Origin: a virus
IMG/VR virus record: IMGVR_UViG_3300045988_164840
DNA length: 39,550 bases
Reading direction: 5' to 3' (one strand)
Shown: positions 234 through 39,550 of the stretch, in pieces
Layout: each line of letters starts with the position of its first letter
How positions within the stretch are numbered: position 1 is the stretch's first letter
Notes under the pieces: model-generated
Databases searched by the model: none
The model's input: the letters and a program-made list of their open reading frames with translations, nothing else
Told to the model about the DNA's origin: nothing
Translations under genes and position numbers: made by a program

Positions 234-1361
234 TCATTTAATGCCAAGAAGATTGCGTGTACTTTCGGTGTCTTCATGAGCATATCGTTTTCTCAACATT
301 TTTAAATCTGCATGTCCTAATACTGTTGCTACTGCAAATAAATTTGCACCGCTGTTTACCCATAATGTTGCACGTGTATGCCTTAATTCATGCGGATGCA
401 ATATTGGTACATCAACGCCCTGTTGCATATAATATGTATGCATATCTTTCATGAACACATCATAATGCCGTCTGCTCCATGTTCGTGGACTTTGTACAGT
501 TCCTTTTTCTGTGCAAAAGACAAATATACTGTTTCTATCTCTATTTTTCAAGATCTCAACAACATCTGAAGAAATTGGGATTTCTCTTTTCCTGAAATCA
601 TTTTTTGGCTTTCCAATAACAATTTTTGATTTTCTTGTATTTGCGTCGACTACATCTGTAACGCCACGTTCTATTTTTAATGTGGCATGTTCAAAATCAA
701 TGTCATCCCATTGAATTCCAAGCAGTTCCGAACGTGTAATCCCATATGACAATAGCAAAATAACATCAAGACCGTATCTATGTGTAGTTGCATATGCAAG
801 TACCATTTTGCACTGCTCTTCTGTGTAAGTTTGTTTTTTTCTTGTCTCTTTTTTGCTTGATAATTTGATGCTGGTGCATGGGTTCACATGGATCAAGCCA
901 TTTTGTAAAGCAGATTCAAAAATTCTTGATAGTGCCATTCTATGCTTTTTTAGCGTTTCTATCGTATATTCATTTGCTTTTTTATTAAAGTAGAGCTGGA
1001 TATCTATCTGCTTTATTTCTTGAATATGTGCTTTTTTGAAATATGGGATCAAGTGATTTTCAATAGAATTTCGATAGGTTAAATTGTAGGAACTATCTTT
1101 CACGGTTCCTTTTAAAGATTCCAAAACTTTTCTTGCCCATGTATCAAAACAGGTTCCGATACTTGTAATAGATTCACCTGTTATGTTTTTGACAGCTTGT
1201 TCAATTTTGTATTGTTCTGCTTTCGCTCTTGCATCTTCTTTGCTCCTTTTGCTGTAAAAGCTTTTGCGGATCAATGTGCCATCAAAATTCTTTCCAACGG
1301 TCACTTTCACTTCATAGCAACCGTCTTTTCTGTTCGGCTTTTCTTTTTTTGGTCTGCCCAT
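234..1361 (-). CDS. int: Tyrosine recombinase / phage integrase
   Basis: 375 aa. C-terminal catalytic pattern ..HPHELRHTRATL..LGHADLKMLRKRYAH (R, H-x-x-R, H, Y). GAGGGAG RBS before the ATG. Adjacent to attL. Confidence 0.95.
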   Translation of the reverse strand: MGRPKKEKPNRKDGCYEVKVTVGKNFDGTLIRKSFYSKRSKEDARAKAEQYKIEQAVKNITGESITSIGTCFDTWARKVLESLKGTVKDSSYNLTYRNSIENHLIPYFKKAHIQEIKQIDIQLYFNKKANEYTIETLKKHRMALSRIFESALQNGLIHVNPCTSIKLSSKKETRKKQTYTEEQCKMVLAYATTHRYGLDVILLLSYGITRSELLGIQWDDIDFEHATLKIERGVTDVVDANTRKSKIVIGKPKNDFRKREIPISSDVVEILKNRDRNSIFVFCTEKGTVQSPRTWSRRHYDVFMKDMHTYYMQQGVDVPILHPHELRHTRATLWVNSGANLFAVATVLGHADLKMLRKRYAHEDTESTRNLLGIK

Positions 1362-1578: not shown

Positions 1579-3225
1579 TTACTTGATTTTATAATAAGCA
1601 AATTTTCCCTTACCAACAAGTATAAGCATTCCGTCTTCTGTCATTTTGACAAGTAGTCGATATGCTTGCCCTTGGTTTAAATGTAGGAGTTGCATAACAT
1701 CTTTTCTTGTCACTTTTCCATAATTGTTTTTTGCAAATTTTAAAATAAGTTCTGGATAACGAATACGATTAATACCCGTCTGTCGTACATACCCAATAAC
1801 ATTATTTGCATTTTTATAAAGTTCTGCACTAAGAATATAGGATCTATTATTTCCGTTTCCATCTGTTTCCACAAGTCCCGATTCAACTAATTTTTCAATA
1901 GTAGTACGTACCTTGTATTCATTGATATGAATCATATGTGTAAGTGATTTAAGTTGTAGTCTTCTATTTGATTTTAAAGCATTTAATATCAGTAAAGCAT
2001 TTATAGATAATGGCCTTCCAATTTTACTTTGTTCTTCTGCAACCATTTTAATGAATGCCTTATCTGGTAAGCTTTTTGGAATAAACAGATTTACAGTGTT
2101 TGAATTGGATTCTGAATAATCAGGTAATGACTTTCCATAGGAAAGAGATCCTTCAAAAATACGATCAATCCCTCTTCCAGTACGTTCTGCAAGACCAATA
2201 CGTTTTAATGCATCAGCAAGTGCAGGATTTCTTCCGTGCGGTTCTGCTGTCAATAGATTTTCAATTGTTACGCCTTCAATAAATCCACCTGGATTACTTA
2301 TTGTTAAGCCATCATCATCCAGTGCAACGCGAATACGTCCCAATATTGTGTAGTCTCGATGGCAAAAGGCATTTACAAGTGCTTCACGAAACGCTCTTTT
2401 ATCAAAATCTGGAATAGAGATACGAAATAATCCTTCCTCCATTTCTTCTGTGTGATTTCTGGCATCCATATAAGATTCTATTTTTTCGAATGCTGTTAGC
2501 ATAGGTAACATAAACGATTCATTTACAACTACATCTGTGCCTTGTAATTCTTGAAATGTTGCTTCAGCAGTCGGAACAAGCATTGAGAGACGTTCTCTAC
2601 GACCAATCAATAACATACCACAATATGTAGGAACAAAAACACCATTTTGTTCTATTGCCAAACGAAGTGCAAGATCTAACTCTGTATCATCAAGATCAAG
2701 TAAAGTTTTTTCACCGTGATAATTTTGTATGATGCTACGAAGATGCTCTCGTTCTACTGGATCTAAATCTGAATATACAGCTTCTGGAACAGGTTGTGCG
2801 GAATAATCCAGCATACGCAATGAAGAAAGTCGTGAATTCATTTCATATGGGTACATAGGTATGTTTTCTGGTTCCCCATCCAACTTAATTCGTCTTCTCA
2901 AAACTTTTCCATTTGAAGCAGCAACAATAGCAGAATATTTTGGAACTGTTATAATCAAATATTTTATGTTATTTGTATCAATAAGTTCAGTATGAACAGC
3001 AACAGGTGGAATTGTTTTATTTGCAATAAATGCTGCCAATTTTGAAGGGTCTTTGTGAGATGGATGTAATCCTGTAATGTCACCATTATCTTCTACGCCA
3101 AGGAAAAATCTGCCACCATTAGTATTTGCAAAAGCAACTACACTTTCAATTATCACGTCATCTGATAATTTTTTTAAATCGCTTTTAAATTCAATGGTTA
3201 TATTTTCTCGGAATCCAATGTTCAT
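1579..3225 (-). CDS. Schlafen/AlbA_2-domain protein with an HATPase_c_4-like segment and C-terminal winged-helix regions (COG2865-type putative regulator)
   Basis: ENITIEFKSDL..VVAFANTNGGRFFLGVEDNG (AlbA_2-like). FREALVNAFCHRDY..ISNPGG..GRNP..AERTGRGI (HATPase_c_4-like). Start trimmed to ATG 3225, which has AAAGGAG 8 nt upstream. Confidence 0.85.
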   Translation of the reverse strand: MNIGFRENITIEFKSDLKKLSDDVIIESVVAFANTNGGRFFLGVEDNGDITGLHPSHKDPSKLAAFIANKTIPPVAVHTELIDTNNIKYLIITVPKYSAIVAASNGKVLRRRIKLDGEPENIPMYPYEMNSRLSSLRMLDYSAQPVPEAVYSDLDPVEREHLRSIIQNYHGEKTLLDLDDTELDLALRLAIEQNGVFVPTYCGMLLIGRRERLSMLVPTAEATFQELQGTDVVVNESFMLPMLTAFEKIESYMDARNHTEEMEEGLFRISIPDFDKRAFREALVNAFCHRDYTILGRIRVALDDDGLTISNPGGFIEGVTIENLLTAEPHGRNPALADALKRIGLAERTGRGIDRIFEGSLSYGKSLPDYSESNSNTVNLFIPKSLPDKAFIKMVAEEQSKIGRPLSINALLILNALKSNRRLQLKSLTHMIHINEYKVRTTIEKLVESGLVETDGNGNNRSYILSAELYKNANNVIGYVRQTGINRIRYPELILKFAKNNYGKVTRKDVMQLLHLNQGQAYRLLVKMTEDGMLILVGKGKFAYYKIK

Positions 3226-3240
3226 TTCAACACTCCTTTT

Positions 3241-3412
3241 ACGCTCGGTGAGCGTTAATACATATTTATTATAGCACAAACGAGCGTTAAAAGCAAGCGT
3301 TAAAATAAAAAAATTGTTTTTCAATGAAAAAAAGTGCGAATTTTCGGAACATTTATAAGTGTCTGGTTTAACGCTCGTTAACACTCGATACGAGCGTTAA
3401 ACCGAGCGTTAA
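3241..3412. promoter_or_regulatory. Array of GAGCGTTAA iterons (putative operators)
   Basis: GAGCGTTAA at 3250, 3282, 3392 and 3404. AAGCGTTAA at 3295. Inverted TTAACGCTC at 3368. Palindrome ACGCTC-GGT-GAGCGT at 3241-3255. Confidence 0.7.
3268..3296 (-). promoter_or_regulatory. Promoter of the AlbA_2-type gene (TTGCTT-17-TATAAT, TGn extended)
   Basis: -10 at 3268-3273 and -35 at 3291-3296 (minus strand). One iteron fills the spacer, one overlaps the -35, and a palindrome sits in the 5' UTR. Confidence 0.6.
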
Positions 3413-3450
3413 ACTGATTTTTTGTAGTTTTAGTGACATATAACACATGC

Positions 3451-3500
3451 AAAAAATCCCACCGGAGCAGGTGCATCAACCGCTTCGATGGGGTTTTTTT
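3451..3500 (-). terminator. Terminator element, copy A (A-run, hairpin, T-run)
   Basis: AAAAAATCCCACCGGAGC-AGGTGCATCAACC-GCTTCGATGGGGTTTTTTT, located 11 nt after the stop of the 3511-4272 gene. About 90% identical to 6415-6462. Confidence 0.8.
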
Positions 3501-3510
3501 ATTTAATACC

Positions 3511-4272
3511 TTATACAAATACATTTTGATTTTCACCAATAGAACTAAATAAAATTGGTTTAATAGCATAGCTTTCAAATGCAACAATATCTTTTTCATT
3601 TATTTTGTTTTCATCGTTTATAATTGTTATTAAAGTACTGCTATCTTCTCTAGCATCCATCGTATCAAGCCAATTAAAGATTGTAGCATCTCTAATTGAT
3701 TTGTTTAAATGATTGATAACTCTACAAAAACGGTCTGTTGGATTGGCTTTATTTCGTTGAAAATGAAAATCGTATGTGTATATATTTTTCGTTTTTCCAA
3801 TTATTGAAAAATCTCTGGTATAATATATTTCATGTTTATCGAAAAATGTAGTAACATCTTCCAAAAACAAACTTTTTACATTGCTTTTTCGTAGTTCAAA
3901 CATATTATCAATCAGCAACATTGCTTGAACCATCATATGCTTTTTTTTCGGAAAATCTTTAATTTTAGAAACGGCTGTAATCGCTTCTCCATCCAGTGTA
4001 AGTCCATAATTATGAATTGTTCTTTCTAAAATTCGCTGTTTTGTAGAATTTTTCTTGAATTGCATGCCACATGCGATAAGATTTCCAATAATATAACCGT
4101 CATCTGTGAAAAATACATCATTTTCATCAACTTGCTTTACATAAATCTGGAGATAATCGTTAAAGCGGTCTAAATATGGAGTTGTTATTTCATAGTATTC
4201 ACCGATTTTTTCAAAAGAGATACTTTTGTTAAGCCAATCGGTATAGGAATCTATCATTTTCTTAATATCCAT
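3511..4272 (-). CDS. DUF1828/DUF1829-like protein (function unknown)
   Basis: 253 aa. N-terminal YYEITTPYLDRFNDYLQIYV..FFTDDGYIIGNL matches my memory of DUF1828 followed by DUF1829. AGGAG RBS present. Lies 24 nt downstream of the preceding gene. Confidence 0.8.
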   Translation of the reverse strand: MDIKKMIDSYTDWLNKSISFEKIGEYYEITTPYLDRFNDYLQIYVKQVDENDVFFTDDGYIIGNLIACGMQFKKNSTKQRILERTIHNYGLTLDGEAITAVSKIKDFPKKKHMMVQAMLLIDNMFELRKSNVKSLFLEDVTTFFDKHEIYYTRDFSIIGKTKNIYTYDFHFQRNKANPTDRFCRVINHLNKSIRDATIFNWLDTMDAREDSSTLITIINDENKINEKDIVAFESYAIKPILFSSIGENQNVFV

Positions 4273-4296
4273 GCTATCAACTCCTTTTTCTGCTTT

Positions 4297-4746
4297 TTAA
4301 AATCCTTTAAGTGATGTTACTTGGGCAATCGTTGGAGGATCTACAATGTGAAATCGTTCAAAAAAGTCCATACAAAGCTCAAGTAAATTTTTGTTGGAAA
4401 CATCAAACGGAATTGCTTCTGTACCATATTCAGCAGAATAGATATGTAGATGTGCCCCTTTTATGTGCGTATCTGTCTTTTCATCATAATGAACTAGGTT
4501 TTTTCCAACATCTAAGCGAAGTAGTACAATTCCTTCTGGCAACCGACCTAAATAAGTACAATTATCAGCATTAATGCCTTTTCTTTGAACATTAACAACA
4601 AAAGACTGATCATCATCAGAAACAACTTCAAATTCAAATCTACCTTTTCCGTTTGGGATATAATACGTTTGGTTTATTACTTTTCTTTTCAATAAGTTTA
4701 TTAGCTCTATTGCTTCTTCCGTGCTTAAAGCAGATTTCTTTGTCAT
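4297..4746 (-). CDS. Hypothetical 149-aa protein with an HxH motif (GAHLHIYSAEYG), possibly DUF6978-like
   Basis: ATG with AAAGGGA RBS, directly downstream of a strong promoter. First gene of a two-gene cassette. The family assignment is tentative. Confidence 0.75.
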   Translation of the reverse strand: MTKKSALSTEEAIELINLLKRKVINQTYYIPNGKGRFEFEVVSDDDQSFVVNVQRKGINADNCTYLGRLPEGIVLLRLDVGKNLVHYDEKTDTHIKGAHLHIYSAEYGTEAIPFDVSNKNLLELCMDFFERFHIVDPPTIAQVTSLKGF

Positions 4747-7041: not shown

Positions 7042-7452
7042 TTATTCTTCCTGATATTTTTCTTCCAACAAATCTATAATATCTGCAATTGCTCGAAGCT
7101 GTTTGGAACGGGGCATTTTTTCCAACAGTACTTCGATTTCCTTGCAGTTGTTTTCTTTTTCAGCAGTCTGCCGGATAGTGACAGAGCCACGATTTTTAAT
7201 CGCTTGGATGCCGTTATTATCTCCGCCTATGTAAGATTCGGACAAAACTGTTGAGTTATCTGTTCTGCCAAGTAAGTAATCAACAGAAACGTTAAAATAA
7301 TCAGCTATTTTCATTAAAACTGAAGAATTAACAGTAGCACCATTCTGCCATTTTTGTTTATTACTTGCACTCATTTTTAGTTCTGCAAGCAAACCACTTA
7401 CAGTAATTCCATTGATTTTGCATAGTTCTGATAAGTTGTCATAAAAGCACAA
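7042..7452 (-). CDS. XRE-family HTH repressor (CI-like, no S24 peptidase domain)
   Basis: HTH_3 pattern LSELCKINGITVSGLLAELKMSASNKQKWQNG..LMKIADYFNVSVDYLLG. The start is probably TTG 7452 (GGGGGT 6 nt upstream). The longer ORF-track N-terminus overlaps the operators. Confidence 0.85.
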   Translation of the reverse strand: MCFYDNLSELCKINGITVSGLLAELKMSASNKQKWQNGATVNSSVLMKIADYFNVSVDYLLGRTDNSTVLSESYIGGDNNGIQAIKNRGSVTIRQTAEKENNCKEIEVLLEKMPRSKQLRAIADIIDLLEEKYQEE

Positions 7453-7487
7453 AATAATACCCCCATTTTTGTGTAAAAAGATGAAAA

Positions 7488-7533
7488 TAACACCATAGTG
7501 TAATTTTTGGTTGACAATCACACTATGGTGTGA
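7488..7533. promoter_or_regulatory. Two operator-like inverted repeats (ACAC-N6-GTGT core)
   Basis: TAACACCATAGTGTAA at 7488-7503 and TCACACTATGGTGTGA at 7518-7533. The second fills the spacer of the rightward promoter. Confidence 0.7.
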
Positions 7534-7539
7534 TATAAT
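7511..7539 (+). promoter_or_regulatory. Rightward consensus promoter TTGACA-17-TATAAT of the switch
   Basis: TTGACA at 7511-7516, TATAAT at 7534-7539. Divergent from the repressor gene. Confidence 0.7.
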
Positions 7540-7802
7540 AAAACCACGGTCGAGATAAAGCACGCTATACCAAATAAAAAAAAGAACGTTTCCGGTTGAT
7601 TTTCATGAGCAAACGGGAAATAAAGCGATTTTCAAGCGTGCTTTACTTTATTGTATCATGTTCCATTTTATTTGTCAATAGAAAGCATATTATTTGCAGA
7701 AATTCTTTGACGATGGAAAATGAAATGTTTAACAAAATCAGTCGAGGACAGGTAGCGGAAAACCCAAACGCTCGACTGAAATTAAAAGAAGGTGGTGAAA
7801 TA

Positions 7803-12689: not shown

Positions 12690-12779
12690 GGTTGCCTTTG
12701 ACATCCACAATCACAAGGTGGATGTTCGGGCTGCCGAAGCAGGGGTAGAATTGGAACGGATTCCGAAAGGGGAAGACGT

Positions 12780-35729: not shown

Positions 35730-35927
35730 ATGAGAAACTGGAAACTTTGGGCAAAGGCTGCAGCAGTCAGAGCCGTGAAAACCATGGCACAGACCGCAGT
35801 AGCAACGATTGGCGTAGCTGCCGTGATGCAAGATGTCAATTGGATCGCCGTTGGCAGTGCGGCTCTGCTGGCTGGGGTGTTGTCCGTTTTGACATCCGTA
35901 GCAGGGCTGCCGGAGGCTGAACGATGA
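35730..35927 (+). CDS. Holin (LL-H / phi LC3-type)
   Basis: 65 aa. WAKAAAVRAVKTMAQTAVATIG..LLAGVLSVLTSVAGLPE is typical of this family. Confidence 0.8.
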   Translation: MRNWKLWAKAAAVRAVKTMAQTAVATIGVAAVMQDVNWIAVGSAALLAGVLSVLTSVAGLPEAER

Positions 35928-36205
35928 ATAGAAGGAAGCTAATAAAATATGATGATATTTTGTCAGGGAAAGGGTTGAAGGAATTGATTTCTGAAACGCA
36001 TCCACCAATGCCAAATTGCATTCCGCCTTGTCCAGACAAATATGAAACAATCACAGTTACGATGAAAGATGGAAAATTTGCTGAGTGGAAGAAAGGTGAA
36101 TGGGATGATTACACCTATGATGGAAAGTTTTTTATTGTGATGAAAAATGAAGCTTGGATTGGTTTTTACAATCTTGATGAAATCAGAACAATTGTAGTTG
36201 AATAA
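35924..36205 (+). CDS. Hypothetical protein (93 aa)
   Basis: ATGA overlap with the holin gene stop. Confidence 0.6.
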   Translation: MNRRKLIKYDDILSGKGLKELISETHPPMPNCIPPCPDKYETITVTMKDGKFAEWKKGEWDDYTYDGKFFIVMKNEAWIGFYNLDEIRTIVVE

Positions 36206-36210
36206 GAAAA

Positions 36211-36240
36211 CCGCCCAGCAGCGGAAAAGCTGCCGGACGG
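36211..36240 (-). terminator. Minus-strand-specific terminator of the inserted XRE unit
   Basis: A 12-bp stem CCGUCCGGCAGC / GCUGCUGGGCGG is perfect only in the minus-strand RNA (two G-U wobbles), and UUUUCUU follows. The plus-strand version has two C-A mismatches and no U-run. Confidence 0.75.
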
Positions 36241-36247
36241 CATCGGG

Positions 36248-36451
36248 TTATTCGGTTTCGGTCTGTTCTGGGTTATCTCTGCAAAGTTCATCCAGCGTGA
36301 CACCCAGGGCATCGGCAAGCTTAATAGCGTTAGACACGAGGCAATCCCCATTTCTGAGGATGTTTTCAACTGTTCGTTTTGGCAATTCCGCCAGATCTGC
36401 CAACTGCTGAACCGTTAACCCTTTTTGTGCTCGAATTTGTTTCAGGTTCAT
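36248..36451 (-). CDS. Small XRE-family HTH protein
   Basis: Start ATG 36451. Contains MNLKQIRAQKGLTVQQLADLAELPKRTVENILRNG. Confidence 0.8.
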   Translation of the reverse strand: MNLKQIRAQKGLTVQQLADLAELPKRTVENILRNGDCLVSNAIKLADALGVTLDELCRDNPEQTETE

Positions 36452-36541
36452 TTCTTTCCTTTCTGGTAAAAGTAAAGCGTCAACTTTACAATTCCAAATA
36501 AAATGAGTAAGCAACCGAATTTTGTAAGTGTTCCCATTGTG

Positions 36542-36570
36542 TTGACATTGGCTTTCTTTTATGATACAAT
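36542..36570 (+). promoter_or_regulatory. Consensus promoter TTGACA-17-TACAAT (TGn extended) facing the small ORF
   Basis: TTGACA at 36542-36547, TG at 36562-36563, TACAAT at 36565-36570. Confidence 0.65.
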
Positions 36571-36620
36571 GGTGAGTAGCAGGGAGAGCGGAAATTTTCC
36601 ACTCTATGCTACCCTTTCTG

Positions 36621-36758
36621 TTAGCCTATGATTTTATCAATCAGTATTAACAGAAATCCGACTGTGAAGTCTACCAACGCACTAATCAAAAGATTGCTGA
36701 CATCAATCTTAGTTTTTGATTTATGCCGTTTGGTAGGCTTCTTTTTTTGTCTTGCCAA
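36621..36758 (-). CDS. Unannotated 45-aa peptide with a basic N-terminus and one TM helix (toxin-like)
   Basis: TTG start lies 10 nt after AAGGGGG. Encodes MARQKKKPTKRHKSKTKIDVSNLLISALVDFTVGFLLILIDKIIG. Lies just downstream of a consensus promoter. It is below the ORF-track size cutoff. Confidence 0.5.
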   Translation of the reverse strand: MARQKKKPTKRHKSKTKIDVSNLLISALVDFTVGFLLILIDKIIG

Positions 36759-36785
36759 TGCTTTCTAACCCCCTTTCTGTATATT

Positions 36786-36814
36786 ATTATACCACATTAA
36801 AAGGTGGTTGTCAA
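36786..36814 (-). promoter_or_regulatory. Consensus promoter TTGACA-17-TATAAT (TGn extended) on the minus strand
   Basis: -10 at 36786-36791 and -35 at 36809-36814, read on the minus strand. Confidence 0.7.
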
Positions 36815-36863
36815 GTGCTTTTTCAAATTTTTCTAAAAATATTTTTTGTGAAAGGATGATATT

Positions 36864-38084
36864 ATGTCAGTCAATCATTATGATTATAATGATAGTACCC
36901 AGCTTTCCCCACATTTTAATGTTAGGGAATTCCGGTGTCAGTGTGGACAATCACACGAAACTTTGATTGCATCTGAATTGGTCGACAAGCTGGAATCTCT
37001 TTACACCGCCCTGAATTGCAGTAAAATCATCGTGACAAGTGGCTACCGCTGCCCAGAGCATGACAAGGCGGTTGGCGGTACGAGCAGCGGTCAGCATACC
37101 AAAGGCACTGCTGCGGATGTCTGCTGTTACGGGCAGGACGGGCAGCTGATCAGCAGCAAGACGGTGTGCTGCAAGGCTCAGGATTTGGGGTTTGGAGGTA
37201 TCGCTAACATCACAAGCAGCTATCAGTATACGCATTTGGATGTTCGGACGGGATACCGCTGGCTAGGTGACGAAACAAAAGGCAATGGCACGGTTACAGA
37301 TGACTTTTACAAGTACTTTGGTATTGAAAAGGCAGAGACTAAAACAAAAAATATCTTAAAAGGGATTGATGTATCCTATGCACAGGGCGTGATTGACTGG
37401 GAAAAAGTAAAAGCATCCGGATTAGTGGATTTTGCGATTCTGCGGGCAGGCTACGGAAAGGAAACCACTCAGGTAGACACACAGTTTGAACGAAACTATG
37501 CCGCCTGCAAACGACTGGGGATTCCAGTCGGCGTTTACTGGTATAGTTATGCTACCACTGCCGCAGAATCAGAGCAGGAAGCGAAAGTTTGCCTGCAAAC
37601 GATTCGGGGAAAGCAATTTGAATATCCGGTTGCCTTCGACATTGAGGAAAAAGAAAGCCTGCAAAATGCAGATGCCTTATGCCAGGCATTTTGCAGTGCA
37701 TTGGAAAAACAGGGCTATTATGCGGCAATTTATACGTTCAAGTCGGCTCTAGAAAATAACATCAGTGCAGCGATCAAGAGCCACTATGATATTTTTCTTT
37801 CACATGTCGGCGTGCAACAGACCTCTTACGCTGGAGCATATGGGCTGTGGCAGTATAGCTGGACGGGACGCATTCCTGGCATCACGGGCGATGTTGATCT
37901 GAATTATGCGTATAAAAATTACCCGGCGATCATCAAACAAGCTGGTTTAAATGGATTTGGAAAAACAGAGCCAGAACCAGAGCCGAAGCCAACACCTGAA
38001 CCAGATAGTGAAGAAAACACGCTGCAACAGATTTTAAAGCATGTGGCAAACATAGATGAAAAAATAAATGGCAATATTACATGA
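36864..38084 (+). CDS. Bifunctional endolysin: M15 (VanY/YcbK-like) peptidase plus GH25 muramidase
   Basis: FNVREFRC..SGYRCPEHDKAVGG..GQHTKGTAADV..THLDV (M15). GIDVSYAQGVIDW..AILRAGYG..GVYWYSYA..WQYS..G..DLNY (GH25). Has a PEPEPKPTPEP linker tail. Confidence 0.9.
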   Translation: MSVNHYDYNDSTQLSPHFNVREFRCQCGQSHETLIASELVDKLESLYTALNCSKIIVTSGYRCPEHDKAVGGTSSGQHTKGTAADVCCYGQDGQLISSKTVCCKAQDLGFGGIANITSSYQYTHLDVRTGYRWLGDETKGNGTVTDDFYKYFGIEKAETKTKNILKGIDVSYAQGVIDWEKVKASGLVDFAILRAGYGKETTQVDTQFERNYAACKRLGIPVGVYWYSYATTAAESEQEAKVCLQTIRGKQFEYPVAFDIEEKESLQNADALCQAFCSALEKQGYYAAIYTFKSALENNISAAIKSHYDIFLSHVGVQQTSYAGAYGLWQYSWTGRIPGITGDVDLNYAYKNYPAIIKQAGLNGFGKTEPEPEPKPTPEPDSEENTLQQILKHVANIDEKINGNIT

Positions 38085-38194: not shown

Positions 38195-39232
38195 TTAAAA
38201 GTCAACGATTTTTTTTAAAAATTGAAAACTTGAAAGTATTATATCATTTTTTCCGAAAAAAGATAAATATTTATGTTCAAATCGCCCAAGAATTTTTCTT
38301 ATTGCTTTCAGATCGTGCTGCAAAATATCTTTTGGCAGAAATGTAGAATCTCCAAATCGCTTGTTGGCAAGATACAATACACTTGCAAATTCATGCAATG
38401 TTCGGCACCTCAATCTTGATTGAATCATTGATTTTGTGCATCCTTTTCTCGAAACGAATGTTCTGACAACCGAAAGTGGATAACATTCATTTCCTGATAA
38501 ATCATGCAAGATACAATTGTTATGTGCACAAGCATTGCGGATACTTTTTATGCTATGTAGCAGTTGAGATGAAAGTGGGCTATCTTCTTCATGATATTTA
38601 TAATAAAAATCATAAAAACGAATTAACCCACCGAATGTGATAGATTCCAGCAGAACCCATATGGGCATATCAATGCAGTACTGCTTTTCTCTACCATTTT
38701 GTTTATATAGATGACAATATACATCATTGTTGTTATCTGAACAGTCACACTCAGAAATATACTTTTTTAGCAAATCGCTTATATAACCATTTCGCTGAAT
38801 TCCCTTCTGTAAAATATCATTTGCTGTATAAGAATCGCTCTTTAAAAATGCAGTAACGATTGCATATGCATCTTCTGGTTTTCTTGTTTCAAAGTCTTTC
38901 AAAAGAGATAATTTTAGGCAATGTTCTATATCGACACAAATCCCAAAAATCTGTTTTCTAAGCTGCAAATCTAAAATTGCAAGTGCTTTCAAATGAAAAA
39001 AATCAAGATTTACGTATTTACCTTTCTTTTCACCCAATTGTGCTTTTTGAAAATTTTTTCTATATGAATACAGCCGCAAAAAATTATTCTTCTCTATTAG
39101 ATATTTTGCGGCATCGTTTTTTTGTATTATTTGAAATGTGATTCCCTTGCTTTCCATTTTATCAACAAGTTCTGTTGCGGAACAGTAAGGTTTTTTCTCT
39201 AACATCGGAGAATGATATAATAATGTTTCCAA
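38195..39232 (-). CDS. Abi_2 family abortive-infection protein (AbiD/AbiF-like)
   Basis: Contains LVDKMESKGITF..AAKYLIEKNNFLRLYSYRKNF..LKALAILDLQLRKQIF..IRNACAHNNCILHD. The start is uncertain (TTG 39232 or ATG 39205). Confidence 0.85.
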   Translation of the reverse strand: METLLYHSPMLEKKPYCSATELVDKMESKGITFQIIQKNDAAKYLIEKNNFLRLYSYRKNFQKAQLGEKKGKYVNLDFFHLKALAILDLQLRKQIFGICVDIEHCLKLSLLKDFETRKPEDAYAIVTAFLKSDSYTANDILQKGIQRNGYISDLLKKYISECDCSDNNNDVYCHLYKQNGREKQYCIDMPIWVLLESITFGGLIRFYDFYYKYHEEDSPLSSQLLHSIKSIRNACAHNNCILHDLSGNECYPLSVVRTFVSRKGCTKSMIQSRLRCRTLHEFASVLYLANKRFGDSTFLPKDILQHDLKAIRKILGRFEHKYLSFFGKNDIILSSFQFLKKIVDF

Positions 39233-39453: not shown

Positions 39454-39550
39454 AACAAAAACCCACGCAATTCCGAAAAAGCCTCGAAACTGCGTGGGTT
39501 TTCTCTGGTCTGAGTGACCGGACTTGAACCGGCGGCCTCTACCACCCCAA
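39454..39550. repeat. attR copy of the 97-bp direct repeat
   Basis: Identical to 1-97. Confidence 0.95.
39506..39550 (-). tRNA. 3' part of tRNA-Pro (probable anticodon GGG). The gene continues beyond the window.
   Basis: CCA end at 39506. T-arm GCCGG-TTCAAGT-CCGGT. Acceptor 3' strand CACTCAG implies C1:G72, and A73 is present, both typical of tRNA-Pro. Loop UUGGGGU with G37. The 5' half is outside the window. Confidence 0.6.

Follow-up and report, generated by a model that had tools for sequence, protein, structure and literature searches.

Why should a temperate phage interrupt its lysis genes with a short transcription unit that runs the other way, and what could such a unit do there? The question is raised by the IMG/VR virus record IMGVR_UViG_3300045988_164840, whose whole stretch of 39,550 nucleotides (nt), called the window below, is a complete temperate phage (prophage). 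Positions 36206-36863 of the window, 658 nt in opposite-strand orientation, separate a 93-amino-acid (aa) open reading frame (ORF) of the lysis region from the endolysin gene. According to our analysis this stretch holds a cassette of three small genes, for two peptides (ORF1 and ORF2) and a protein of the XRE family, together with a convergent promoter for a predicted antisense RNA. Judged from sequence comparison, the cassette looks like an undescribed module of the toxin-antitoxin (TA) type, carried by many gut Clostridia phages, and we lean towards reading it as a type I TA-like module for addiction or abortive infection, autorepressed by XRE.

Anatomy of the cassette

The elements of the cassette, from the promoter of the operon to its terminator, are the following.

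36786-36814, minus strand: P_sense, sigma-A-type promoter TTGACA-17-(TG)TATAAT, 12/12 match to consensus with TG before the -10; heads ORF1-ORF2-XRE
36791-36808, inside the P_sense spacer: palindromic operator ACCACC-N6-TGTGGT, the predicted XRE site
36621-36758, minus strand: ORF1, 45-aa peptide MARQKKKPTKRHKSKTKIDVSNLLISALVDFTVGFLLILIDKIIG; TTG start, Shine-Dalgarno (SD) sequence GGGGG at 36769-36773, 10 nt upstream
36577-36748, plus strand: predicted cis-antisense RNA, about 172 nt, with a 5' stem-loop at 36576-36612, a second stem-loop (SL2) at 36615-36656 and a terminator stem-loop
36666-36748, plus strand: intrinsic terminator of the antisense RNA, basal stem GAAGUCUACCAACG / CGUUUGGUAGGCUUC, then U7 at 36742-36748
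36576-36612, either strand: conserved bipartite hairpin, directly 3' of the ORF1 stop and at the 5' end of the antisense RNA
36542-36570, plus strand: P_anti, TTGACA-17-TGaTACAAT, 11/12 match to consensus with TG; convergent, between ORF1 and ORF2
36448-36537, minus strand: ORF2, 29-aa membrane peptide MGTLTKFGCLLILFGIVKLTLYFYQKGKK, a hydrophobic helix and then a basic tail
36248-36451, minus strand: XRE-family HTH_3 protein of 67 aa (Pfam PF01381, E = 4.3e-10, 39.9 bits vs a cutoff of 23)
36210-36241, minus strand: intrinsic terminator of the cassette, 13-bp stem (9 GC pairs), then UUUUCUU

Most of these parts had been placed by an earlier note on this DNA. The minus-strand promoter TTGACA-17-TATAAT (36814-36786), the 45-aa basic, helix-bearing ORF with its TTG start (36758-36621), the near-perfect convergent plus-strand promoter (36542-36570) and the 67-aa XRE gene (36451-36248), which encodes an HTH_3 protein, all stand as described there. 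The long hairpin followed by T7 (36742-36748) is present as well, its base lying slightly wider (36666-36741) than the proposed 36671-36736. The terminator, noted at 36240-36211 and placed by us at 36241-36210, contains three G.U pairs in the minus-strand RNA that turn into C.A mismatches in the plus-strand RNA, and no plus-strand T-run follows it; judged by these features it is effective on the minus strand only, and the note, too, had its stem perfect in minus-strand RNA alone. What was overlooked is ORF2. The unit, described as one of two genes, has three, and while the span given for the ORF1-XRE gap (169 nt) is right, the gap is not empty: it holds the 29-aa ORF2 and leaves a true intergenic stretch of 83 nt.

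Conservation and coding of the small genes

Relatives of ORF1 form six clusters in a large protein collection, all of them metagenomic, to which one Ruminococcus sp. metagenome-assembled genome and 14 viral contigs could be added from GTDB genomes and IMG/VR, both searched by scans; the homologs come from gut metagenomes and viromes only. A small helix-turn-helix (HTH) gene follows on every contig that extends downstream of the peptide gene. In all, 22 different module sequences were collected, which fall into six lineages (A, A', B, C, D and E), and all 22 keep both promoters, ORF1, the hairpin, ORF2 and XRE; the parts of the module including the terminator are conserved, the cassette terminator being kept in lineages A-C. 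The hexamers and spacing of P_sense are identical in every unique module and the same in most of 79 loci of XRE relatives described below, and both promoters match consensus at 11-12/12 with a 17-nt spacer in all six lineages, despite diverged spacer sequences. In lineages A, A', B and C the module stands between a holin, either r1t-type or holin_4_1, and an M15_3+GH25 endolysin. In D and E the same module is divergent from an HNH endonuclease gene, after which come terS and terL, and this location at the packaging genes means that a position in the lysis cassette is not required.

The head of ORF1 is basic, and its C-terminal part forms a single conserved hydrophobic helix (residues 22-43); the peptide is intact in 22/22 unique modules at 45-48 aa and 60-96% identity. 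ORF2 is likewise intact in all, and its TGA stop overlaps the XRE ATG (ATGA) in each of them. Substitutions in ORF1, ORF2 and XRE are all biased to the third codon position; for ORF2 of the window compared with one relative (L019), 5, 5 and 16 changes fall at codon positions 1, 2 and 3, in 13 synonymous and 7 non-synonymous codons. By this pattern ORF1 is under purifying, coding-type selection. It differs from its neighbours in one respect: between the window and another relative (L001), synonymous changes affect 2/45 codons of ORF1, vs 8/29 of ORF2 and 19/67 of XRE, and in most comparisons synonymous change in ORF1 is about half that of the other two genes. Such restraint would fit a second constraint on the ORF1 nucleotides, imposed by the antisense RNA.

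Neither ORF1 nor ORF2 gave a significant match in Pfam, PHROGs, PADLOC or NCBIfam, and in about 50,000 deposited phage genomes the module DNA and the ORF1 peptide (tblastn) found nothing. Four independent metagenome contigs (L005-L008) start exactly 2 nt before the ORF1 start codon (position 1-3); their shared start indicates that assemblies break at the promoter/endolysin-proximal flank, which would fit a flank common to co-resident phages with different cassettes.

The predicted antisense RNA

In all six lineages P_anti has an invariant -35, a 17-nt spacer and a -10 of TACAAT, TATAAT or TAAAAT, the extended TG being usually kept. The RNA predicted from it is the complement of ORF1, from roughly codon 4 onward as far as the stop codon, and of the ORF1 3' hairpin, which by geometry amounts to about 170 nt of perfect complementarity. 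Two traits of type I TA systems are thus found here, namely a cis-antisense RNA gene overlapping the putative toxin mRNA, as predicted gene anatomy, and a small (<60 aa) hydrophobic/membrane peptide, ORF1. A plus-strand RNA of 176 nt from the predicted start has a minimum free energy (MFE) of -55.2 kcal/mol vs -33 +/- 3.8 for shuffles (z = -5.9), and its fold of three stem-loops recurs in all six lineages. The 5' bipartite hairpin is followed by SL2, which spans the ORF1 stop, and by the terminator (SL3), whose basal stem is of 12-15 bp in the consensus and which would end the RNA about 10 nt short of the ORF1 start codon.

The bipartite hairpin shows covariation: across nine distinct sequences 95% of cells are paired, compensatory changes occur in 6/12 pairs, and 0/500 shuffles reach the covariation score, while its internal loop, UCCC in the sense and GGGA in the antisense RNA, is invariant. 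In lineage E the predicted antisense start would lie inside the outer stem of this hairpin. For the terminator, the antisense RNA has U.G pairs at three positions of the basal stem, of which the first is seen in every lineage, the second in C and D, and the third in B and E. The sense RNA would have C.A or A.C mismatches there, a modest argument for selection of the terminator on the antisense strand.

The antisense gene is not confined to close relatives. Among 18 further distinct ORF1-ORF2 gaps, an antisense promoter (full or extended -10) was found in 12 and a sense promoter in none, vs 4% for shuffles; six cassettes with unrelated payloads (L034, L035, L057, L096, L079 and L099) have a strong antisense-strand hairpin and U-run inside the 5' part of ORF1; and a GC-rich hairpin stands at the position of the bipartite one in cassettes with unrelated payloads. 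The recurrence of antisense promoters and terminators across clades suggests that the antisense RNA gene is a feature of the family and not an accident of the window. Post-ORF1 hairpins across clades have, on the 3' side, an internal loop or flank that is always C-rich in the sense RNA (UCCC, CCCUCCC) and G-rich, SD-like in the antisense RNA, and their loops are often GNRA or UUCG-like.

Two further candidates were considered and rejected. A separate sense promoter or a leaderless start for ORF2-XRE was seen neither by eye nor in the promoter scan of the further cassettes (0/18). Several type I toxin mRNAs are known to sequester their SD by a 5'-3' interaction; an analogous masking of the ORF1 SD by the invariant C-rich motif after the hairpin did not appear in MFE folds of 19 cassettes, which lack consistent SD-3' pairing.

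The repressor and its predicted operator

The palindrome inside P_sense has conserved half-sites and a variable centre. The recognition helix of the XRE proteins bears the motif RT[VI]E[N/D]I, where Asn goes with CCACC (15 combinations) and Asp with CCACG (16), that is in 31/31 distinct combinations without exception. When 48 unique XRE proteins are placed on a neighbour-joining tree with that column masked, the Asn/Asp state switches at least 8 times. This match of residue to base, with its multiple switches, speaks strongly, if indirectly, for XRE as the repressor of its own operon, bound to the palindrome between the two hexamers of P_sense. Two more pairings, RTVEETV with CCACA-N6-TGTGG (L112) and RTLQEI with GCACA-N6-TGTGC (L153), suggest a small recognition code in the XRE family. 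No second XRE operator was found near P_anti or elsewhere in the prophage, save a weaker look-alike at 12721.

Among the same deposited phage genomes the XRE protein has two matches only, one of them in an UNVERIFIED record. This record (L106, MZ417522.1, 7291-7476), with an XRE protein 60% identical to that of the window, is entered in GenBank as "Mycolicibacterium phage J1" and classified as Microviridae, yet is 24.9 kb long; its host or taxonomy assignment looks doubtful.

One chassis, several payloads

A scan of IMG/VR with the XRE alignment gave 79 loci at 42-100% identity, and nearly all of them have the same frame: a consensus promoter with the spacer palindrome CCAC[C/G]-N6-[C/G/T]GTGG; a first gene of 30-57 aa, preceded by a good SD, whose product has one end charged and a single hydrophobic helix; a membrane ORF of 26-59 aa that ends at or near the XRE start; and XRE. 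The peptide sequences are unrelated between clades, ORF1 and ORF2 types being inherited together, and eight other payload peptides had no significant match in Pfam.

The endolysin provides a second view of the same variation. Out of 77 IMG/VR loci whose endolysins are 65-89% identical to that of the window, 37 have no cassette, and there a holin or another gene abuts the endolysin with a gap commonly of 10-16 nt (<=120 nt allowed). Small-peptide cassettes, including ones with unrelated peptides in the same promoter/operator/XRE frame, occupy 17 loci. In a further 20 the same chassis holds HicA (PF07927, E = 1.5e-15), a HicB-like protein (PF15919, E = 1.2e-10) and an HTH_3 protein that ends ...ALGVTLDELCRED; the remaining 3 have other content, e.g. 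a methylase (a DNA methylase-like ORF in L139 and L149). In the HicAB carriers (L113, L123-L136, L138, L140, L144, L182 and L184) the cassette lies some 50 to 900 nt ahead of the start of the endolysin. Neither HicA nor HicB domains were found by Pfam in the cassette of the window; they belong to the sister cassettes.

From these data the holin-endolysin gap appears to be an insertion hot spot. The cassette itself has its own promoter and terminator, opposite orientation, presence and absence among relatives and a second genomic position, and by these signs is an autonomous, optional insertion, or moron. In the HicAB cassettes the order of genes, toxin first and HTH gene last, is that of the peptide cassettes, and of the hints that the peptide payload, too, is of the TA type, the occurrence of a true TA pair on the same chassis is the best at hand.

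Proposed mechanism and its alternatives

Taking together the information discussed above, we propose that XRE, bound at its operator, would keep P_sense low by negative autoregulation, while P_anti would be constitutive and yield an RNA of about 170 nt. This RNA would pair with the ORF1 part of the sense transcript, from roughly codon 4 up to and including the 3' hairpin, and block ORF1 synthesis, possibly by cleavage of the duplex, by a translational block and/or by head-on transcriptional interference. ORF1 would then be a tightly silenced, probably membrane-damaging peptide, and ORF2 either its partner in the membrane or another effector. Should both XRE and the antisense RNA fail, when the prophage is lost, another phage infects or host transcription is shut off, ORF1 would be made and the cell harmed, which would result in addiction or in abortive infection. 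On this view the cassette would behave as a type I TA locus of a prophage, set within the framework of a TA operon under repressor control.

The earlier note had seen in this locus the hallmarks of a type I TA system. As anatomy this holds, with convergent promoters, a membrane peptide, a predicted antisense RNA with its terminator and a regulator in the transcription unit of the peptide. The comparison with known toxins does not go as far, and a number of points weigh against the mechanism proposed. A family-library search placed neither ORF1 nor ORF2 in the known toxin families (Fst/Ldr, TxpA/BsrG, YonT, Hok, Hol_Tox, C. difficile), and the polarity of ORF1, a basic N-terminus and C-terminal helix, is opposite to that of the usual Gram-positive type I toxins; ORF2 is nearer to the usual polarity, yet lies outside the antisense RNA overlap, and has no recognisable SD upstream of its ATG because the -35 of P_anti occupies that stretch. 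On the side of the RNA, P_anti is undetectable in about 1/3 of the wider family, wobbles in the bipartite hairpin favour each strand about equally and allow no single-strand assignment, the strand-specific wobble evidence for the terminator amounts to three or four substitutions, and P_sense and P_anti are equally near consensus, so which RNA would be in excess is not predictable. The chassis shared with HicAB is circumstantial evidence.

It would be also logical to consider that ORF1 and ORF2 are non-toxic lysogenic-conversion factors, acting in superinfection exclusion through a block of DNA entry or of an incoming phage's holins, with XRE and the antisense RNA setting their dosage. The cassette fits this view in being an optional insertion on the opposite strand, headed by a promoter that would suit a gene expressed in the lysogen; diverse payload peptides on a conserved chassis resemble arms-race genes, the two ORF types travel together, and the window has other defence-like morons, including Abi_2/AbiD. 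A repressor, an antisense RNA with terminator and weak TTG/GTG starts seem, however, excessive for a harmless protein, a true TA pair shares the chassis, and searches of PHROGs and PADLOC gave no similarity to known superinfection-exclusion proteins, so we regard this explanation as rather unlikely. A different proposal, that the peptides act as antiholin or holin modulator while the convergent unit and the plus-strand terminator gate read-through from holin to endolysin, is attractive for the exact holin-endolysin position in four lineages and for the antisense terminator that lies upstream of the endolysin on the same strand, with no plus-strand promoter of >=9/12 from 36749 to the region overlapping the endolysin start. 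Late transcripts must, for want of a good plus-strand promoter after it, read through this terminator, or be antiterminated. Nevertheless, lineages D and E have their cassettes far from lysis genes, upstream of HNH/terS/terL, two unrelated holin types accompany the cassette, half of the related endolysins abut the holin without any cassette, and HicAB, of non-lysis function, occupies the same slot. A lysis-timing device is thus quite improbable, and the gating of lysis timing suggested in the earlier note is not the core function, although as a side effect it is possible.

The same features bear on the nature of P_anti, which the earlier note offered as an independent promoter of the endolysin. 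If it served mainly in this capacity (in D and E, as a promoter of the packaging genes), its complementarity to ORF1 would be incidental. P_anti does point at the endolysin, with no other strong plus-strand promoter before it, and faces HNH/terS/terL in lineages D and E. But the conserved hairpin and U7 intervene in all lineages and also in clades with unrelated payloads, a constitutive consensus promoter on late genes would be costly in a lysogen, and cassette-free endolysins do without such a promoter; we consider this role very improbable. Finally, one may ask if the ORFs and promoters are just chance features of an AT-rich spacer without function, given that consensus-like promoters are not rare locally (14 found in the region vs 11.6 expected at a threshold of >=9/12). 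This is refuted by the comparative data: every element is kept across six lineages with divergent spacers, both ORFs have coding-type substitutions, the RNA covaries, and the repressor residue covaries with the operator base, which leaves chance practically no room.

Going beyond the addiction or abortive-infection module that we favour, one may imagine a new hybrid class of TA with three layers of control, namely XRE transcribed across a convergent promoter, a full-length antisense RNA and ORF2 as partner or antidote, on a payload-exchanging chassis and with late-gene expression tied to the cassette. We regard this extension as unlikely. If true, it would mean that small-peptide and HicAB payloads are swapped by recombination between phages, and that the plus-strand terminator before the endolysin or packaging genes ties addiction or abortive infection to lysis.

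Significance

Neither peptide has been functionally annotated: ORF1 is entered as "hypothetical protein" or left unnamed, and ORF2 is absent from all gene calls inspected. The cassette occurs in more than 100 gut-phage contigs, and if ORF1 is a toxin, it would represent an addiction or abortive-infection system that is widespread in Ruminococcus-type (Clostridia) prophages and has been overlooked. It would be also a natural example of one regulatory frame that accepts two kinds of payload, type II (HicAB) or type I-like (peptide and antisense RNA). The match of Asn/Asp to C/G gives a specificity rule for a small repressor family, which could serve for orthogonal genetic parts. The ORF1 gene, moreover, presents dual coding, as it also encodes the terminator of its own predicted antisense RNA.

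The prophage around the cassette

Genes of the window that define its phage context are the following.

234-1361, minus strand: integrase
7042-7563, minus strand: CI-type repressor
35730-35927: r1t-type holin
35924-36205: 93-aa ORF of the lysis region
36864-38084: M15_3+GH25 endolysin

The genes of TerL, portal and tape measure lie on the plus strand after the region of the integrase and CI-type repressor. An exact 97-nt direct repeat (1-97 = 39454-39550) includes the reverse complement of a tRNA 3' half (…GGTTCAAGTCCGG…CCA), and the two copies are probably the attL and attR sites that the prophage formed on integrating into a tRNA gene. ARAGORN found no complete tRNA in the window, and Rfam no known RNA genes at gathering threshold.

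Downstream of the endolysin, on the minus strand at 38195-39232, there is an Abi_2/AbiD-family gene (Pfam E = 7e-24, PADLOC AbiD E = 1e-18) with its own consensus promoter at 39300-39272 (11/12) and a terminator-like hairpin at 38105-38068; RNA-based regulation of a phage AbiF system has been described in C. difficile (bioRxiv 10.1101/2025.04.15.648962). An accessory block that adjoins the integrase (1579-4746, minus strand) encodes a 601-aa protein with Schlafen/AlbA_2, HATPase_c_4 and winged HTH domains, a DUF1828/DUF1829 protein and a DUF6978 protein, and may consist of defence or anti-defence morons.

Comparison with known systems

Among the systems close to it are the HicA/HicB cassettes of sister phages, which share with the cassette of the window the position divergent from a homologous M15_3+GH25 endolysin, the gene order, a consensus promoter with a spacer palindrome (CCACG-AAAA-CGTGG in the HicA/HicB cassettes) and the C-terminus ...ALGVTLDELCR... 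of the HTH_3 protein. They differ in the payload, since in place of membrane peptides they have a toxin of the ribonuclease type (PF07927) and a protein antitoxin (PF15919), and a strict-pattern scan revealed no internal antisense promoter in them. In its regulator the cassette resembles the C proteins of restriction-modification systems and other small XRE autorepressors (PADLOC Control_protein, capH), where an HTH-only protein is part of the operon that it controls and a palindrome lies over the promoter. C proteins, which may be activators besides being repressors, are usually encoded by the first gene. Unlike them, the XRE gene here is last, so that synthesis of XRE needs read-through across the convergent promoter.

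Judged by arrangement, the yonT-yoyJ/SR6 locus of the B. subtilis prophage SPbeta is the closest described system, and the type I TAs of C. difficile prophages are the nearest taxonomic precedent. The latter stabilise their prophages (PMC7699646, PMC6563280). The C. difficile pairs CD0956.2-RCd10 and CD0977.1-RCd11 (PMC6563280, PMC7699646) have in common with the cassette Clostridia prophages as carriers, convergent sigma-A promoters and overlapping sense and antisense RNAs (predicted ones in the cassette), and their toxins, like the cassette peptides, are membrane peptides, of 34-59 aa, with a proposed prophage-stabilising role. Gram-positive type I toxins usually possess an N-terminal helix and a charged C-terminus (PMC6563280), and those of C. 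difficile, with a hydrophobic N-terminus and a lysine-rich C-terminus, follow this rule; no repressor or second peptide is described in an operon with them. What sets ORF1 and ORF2 apart from them is the outcome of family-library searches, not a direct sequence comparison.

yonT-yoyJ/SR6 is a polycistronic type I TA locus in which two small toxins flank the gene of the antisense RNA (PMC5848175). As in the layout predicted for the cassette, the locus is prophage-borne, the toxin mRNA is polycistronic, and the antisense RNA comes from a convergent promoter between two small ORFs. Its antisense RNA, of about 100 nt, overlaps the first toxin at the 3' end, whereas the RNA predicted for the cassette covers almost the whole ORF1 and has no overlap with ORF2. 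The cassette further differs in an operon that ends in XRE with an operator in the toxin promoter, in the basic N-terminus of ORF1 and in the lack of any sequence similarity between the two. From both yonT-yoyJ/SR6 and the TAs of C. difficile it is distinguished by its exchangeable chassis.

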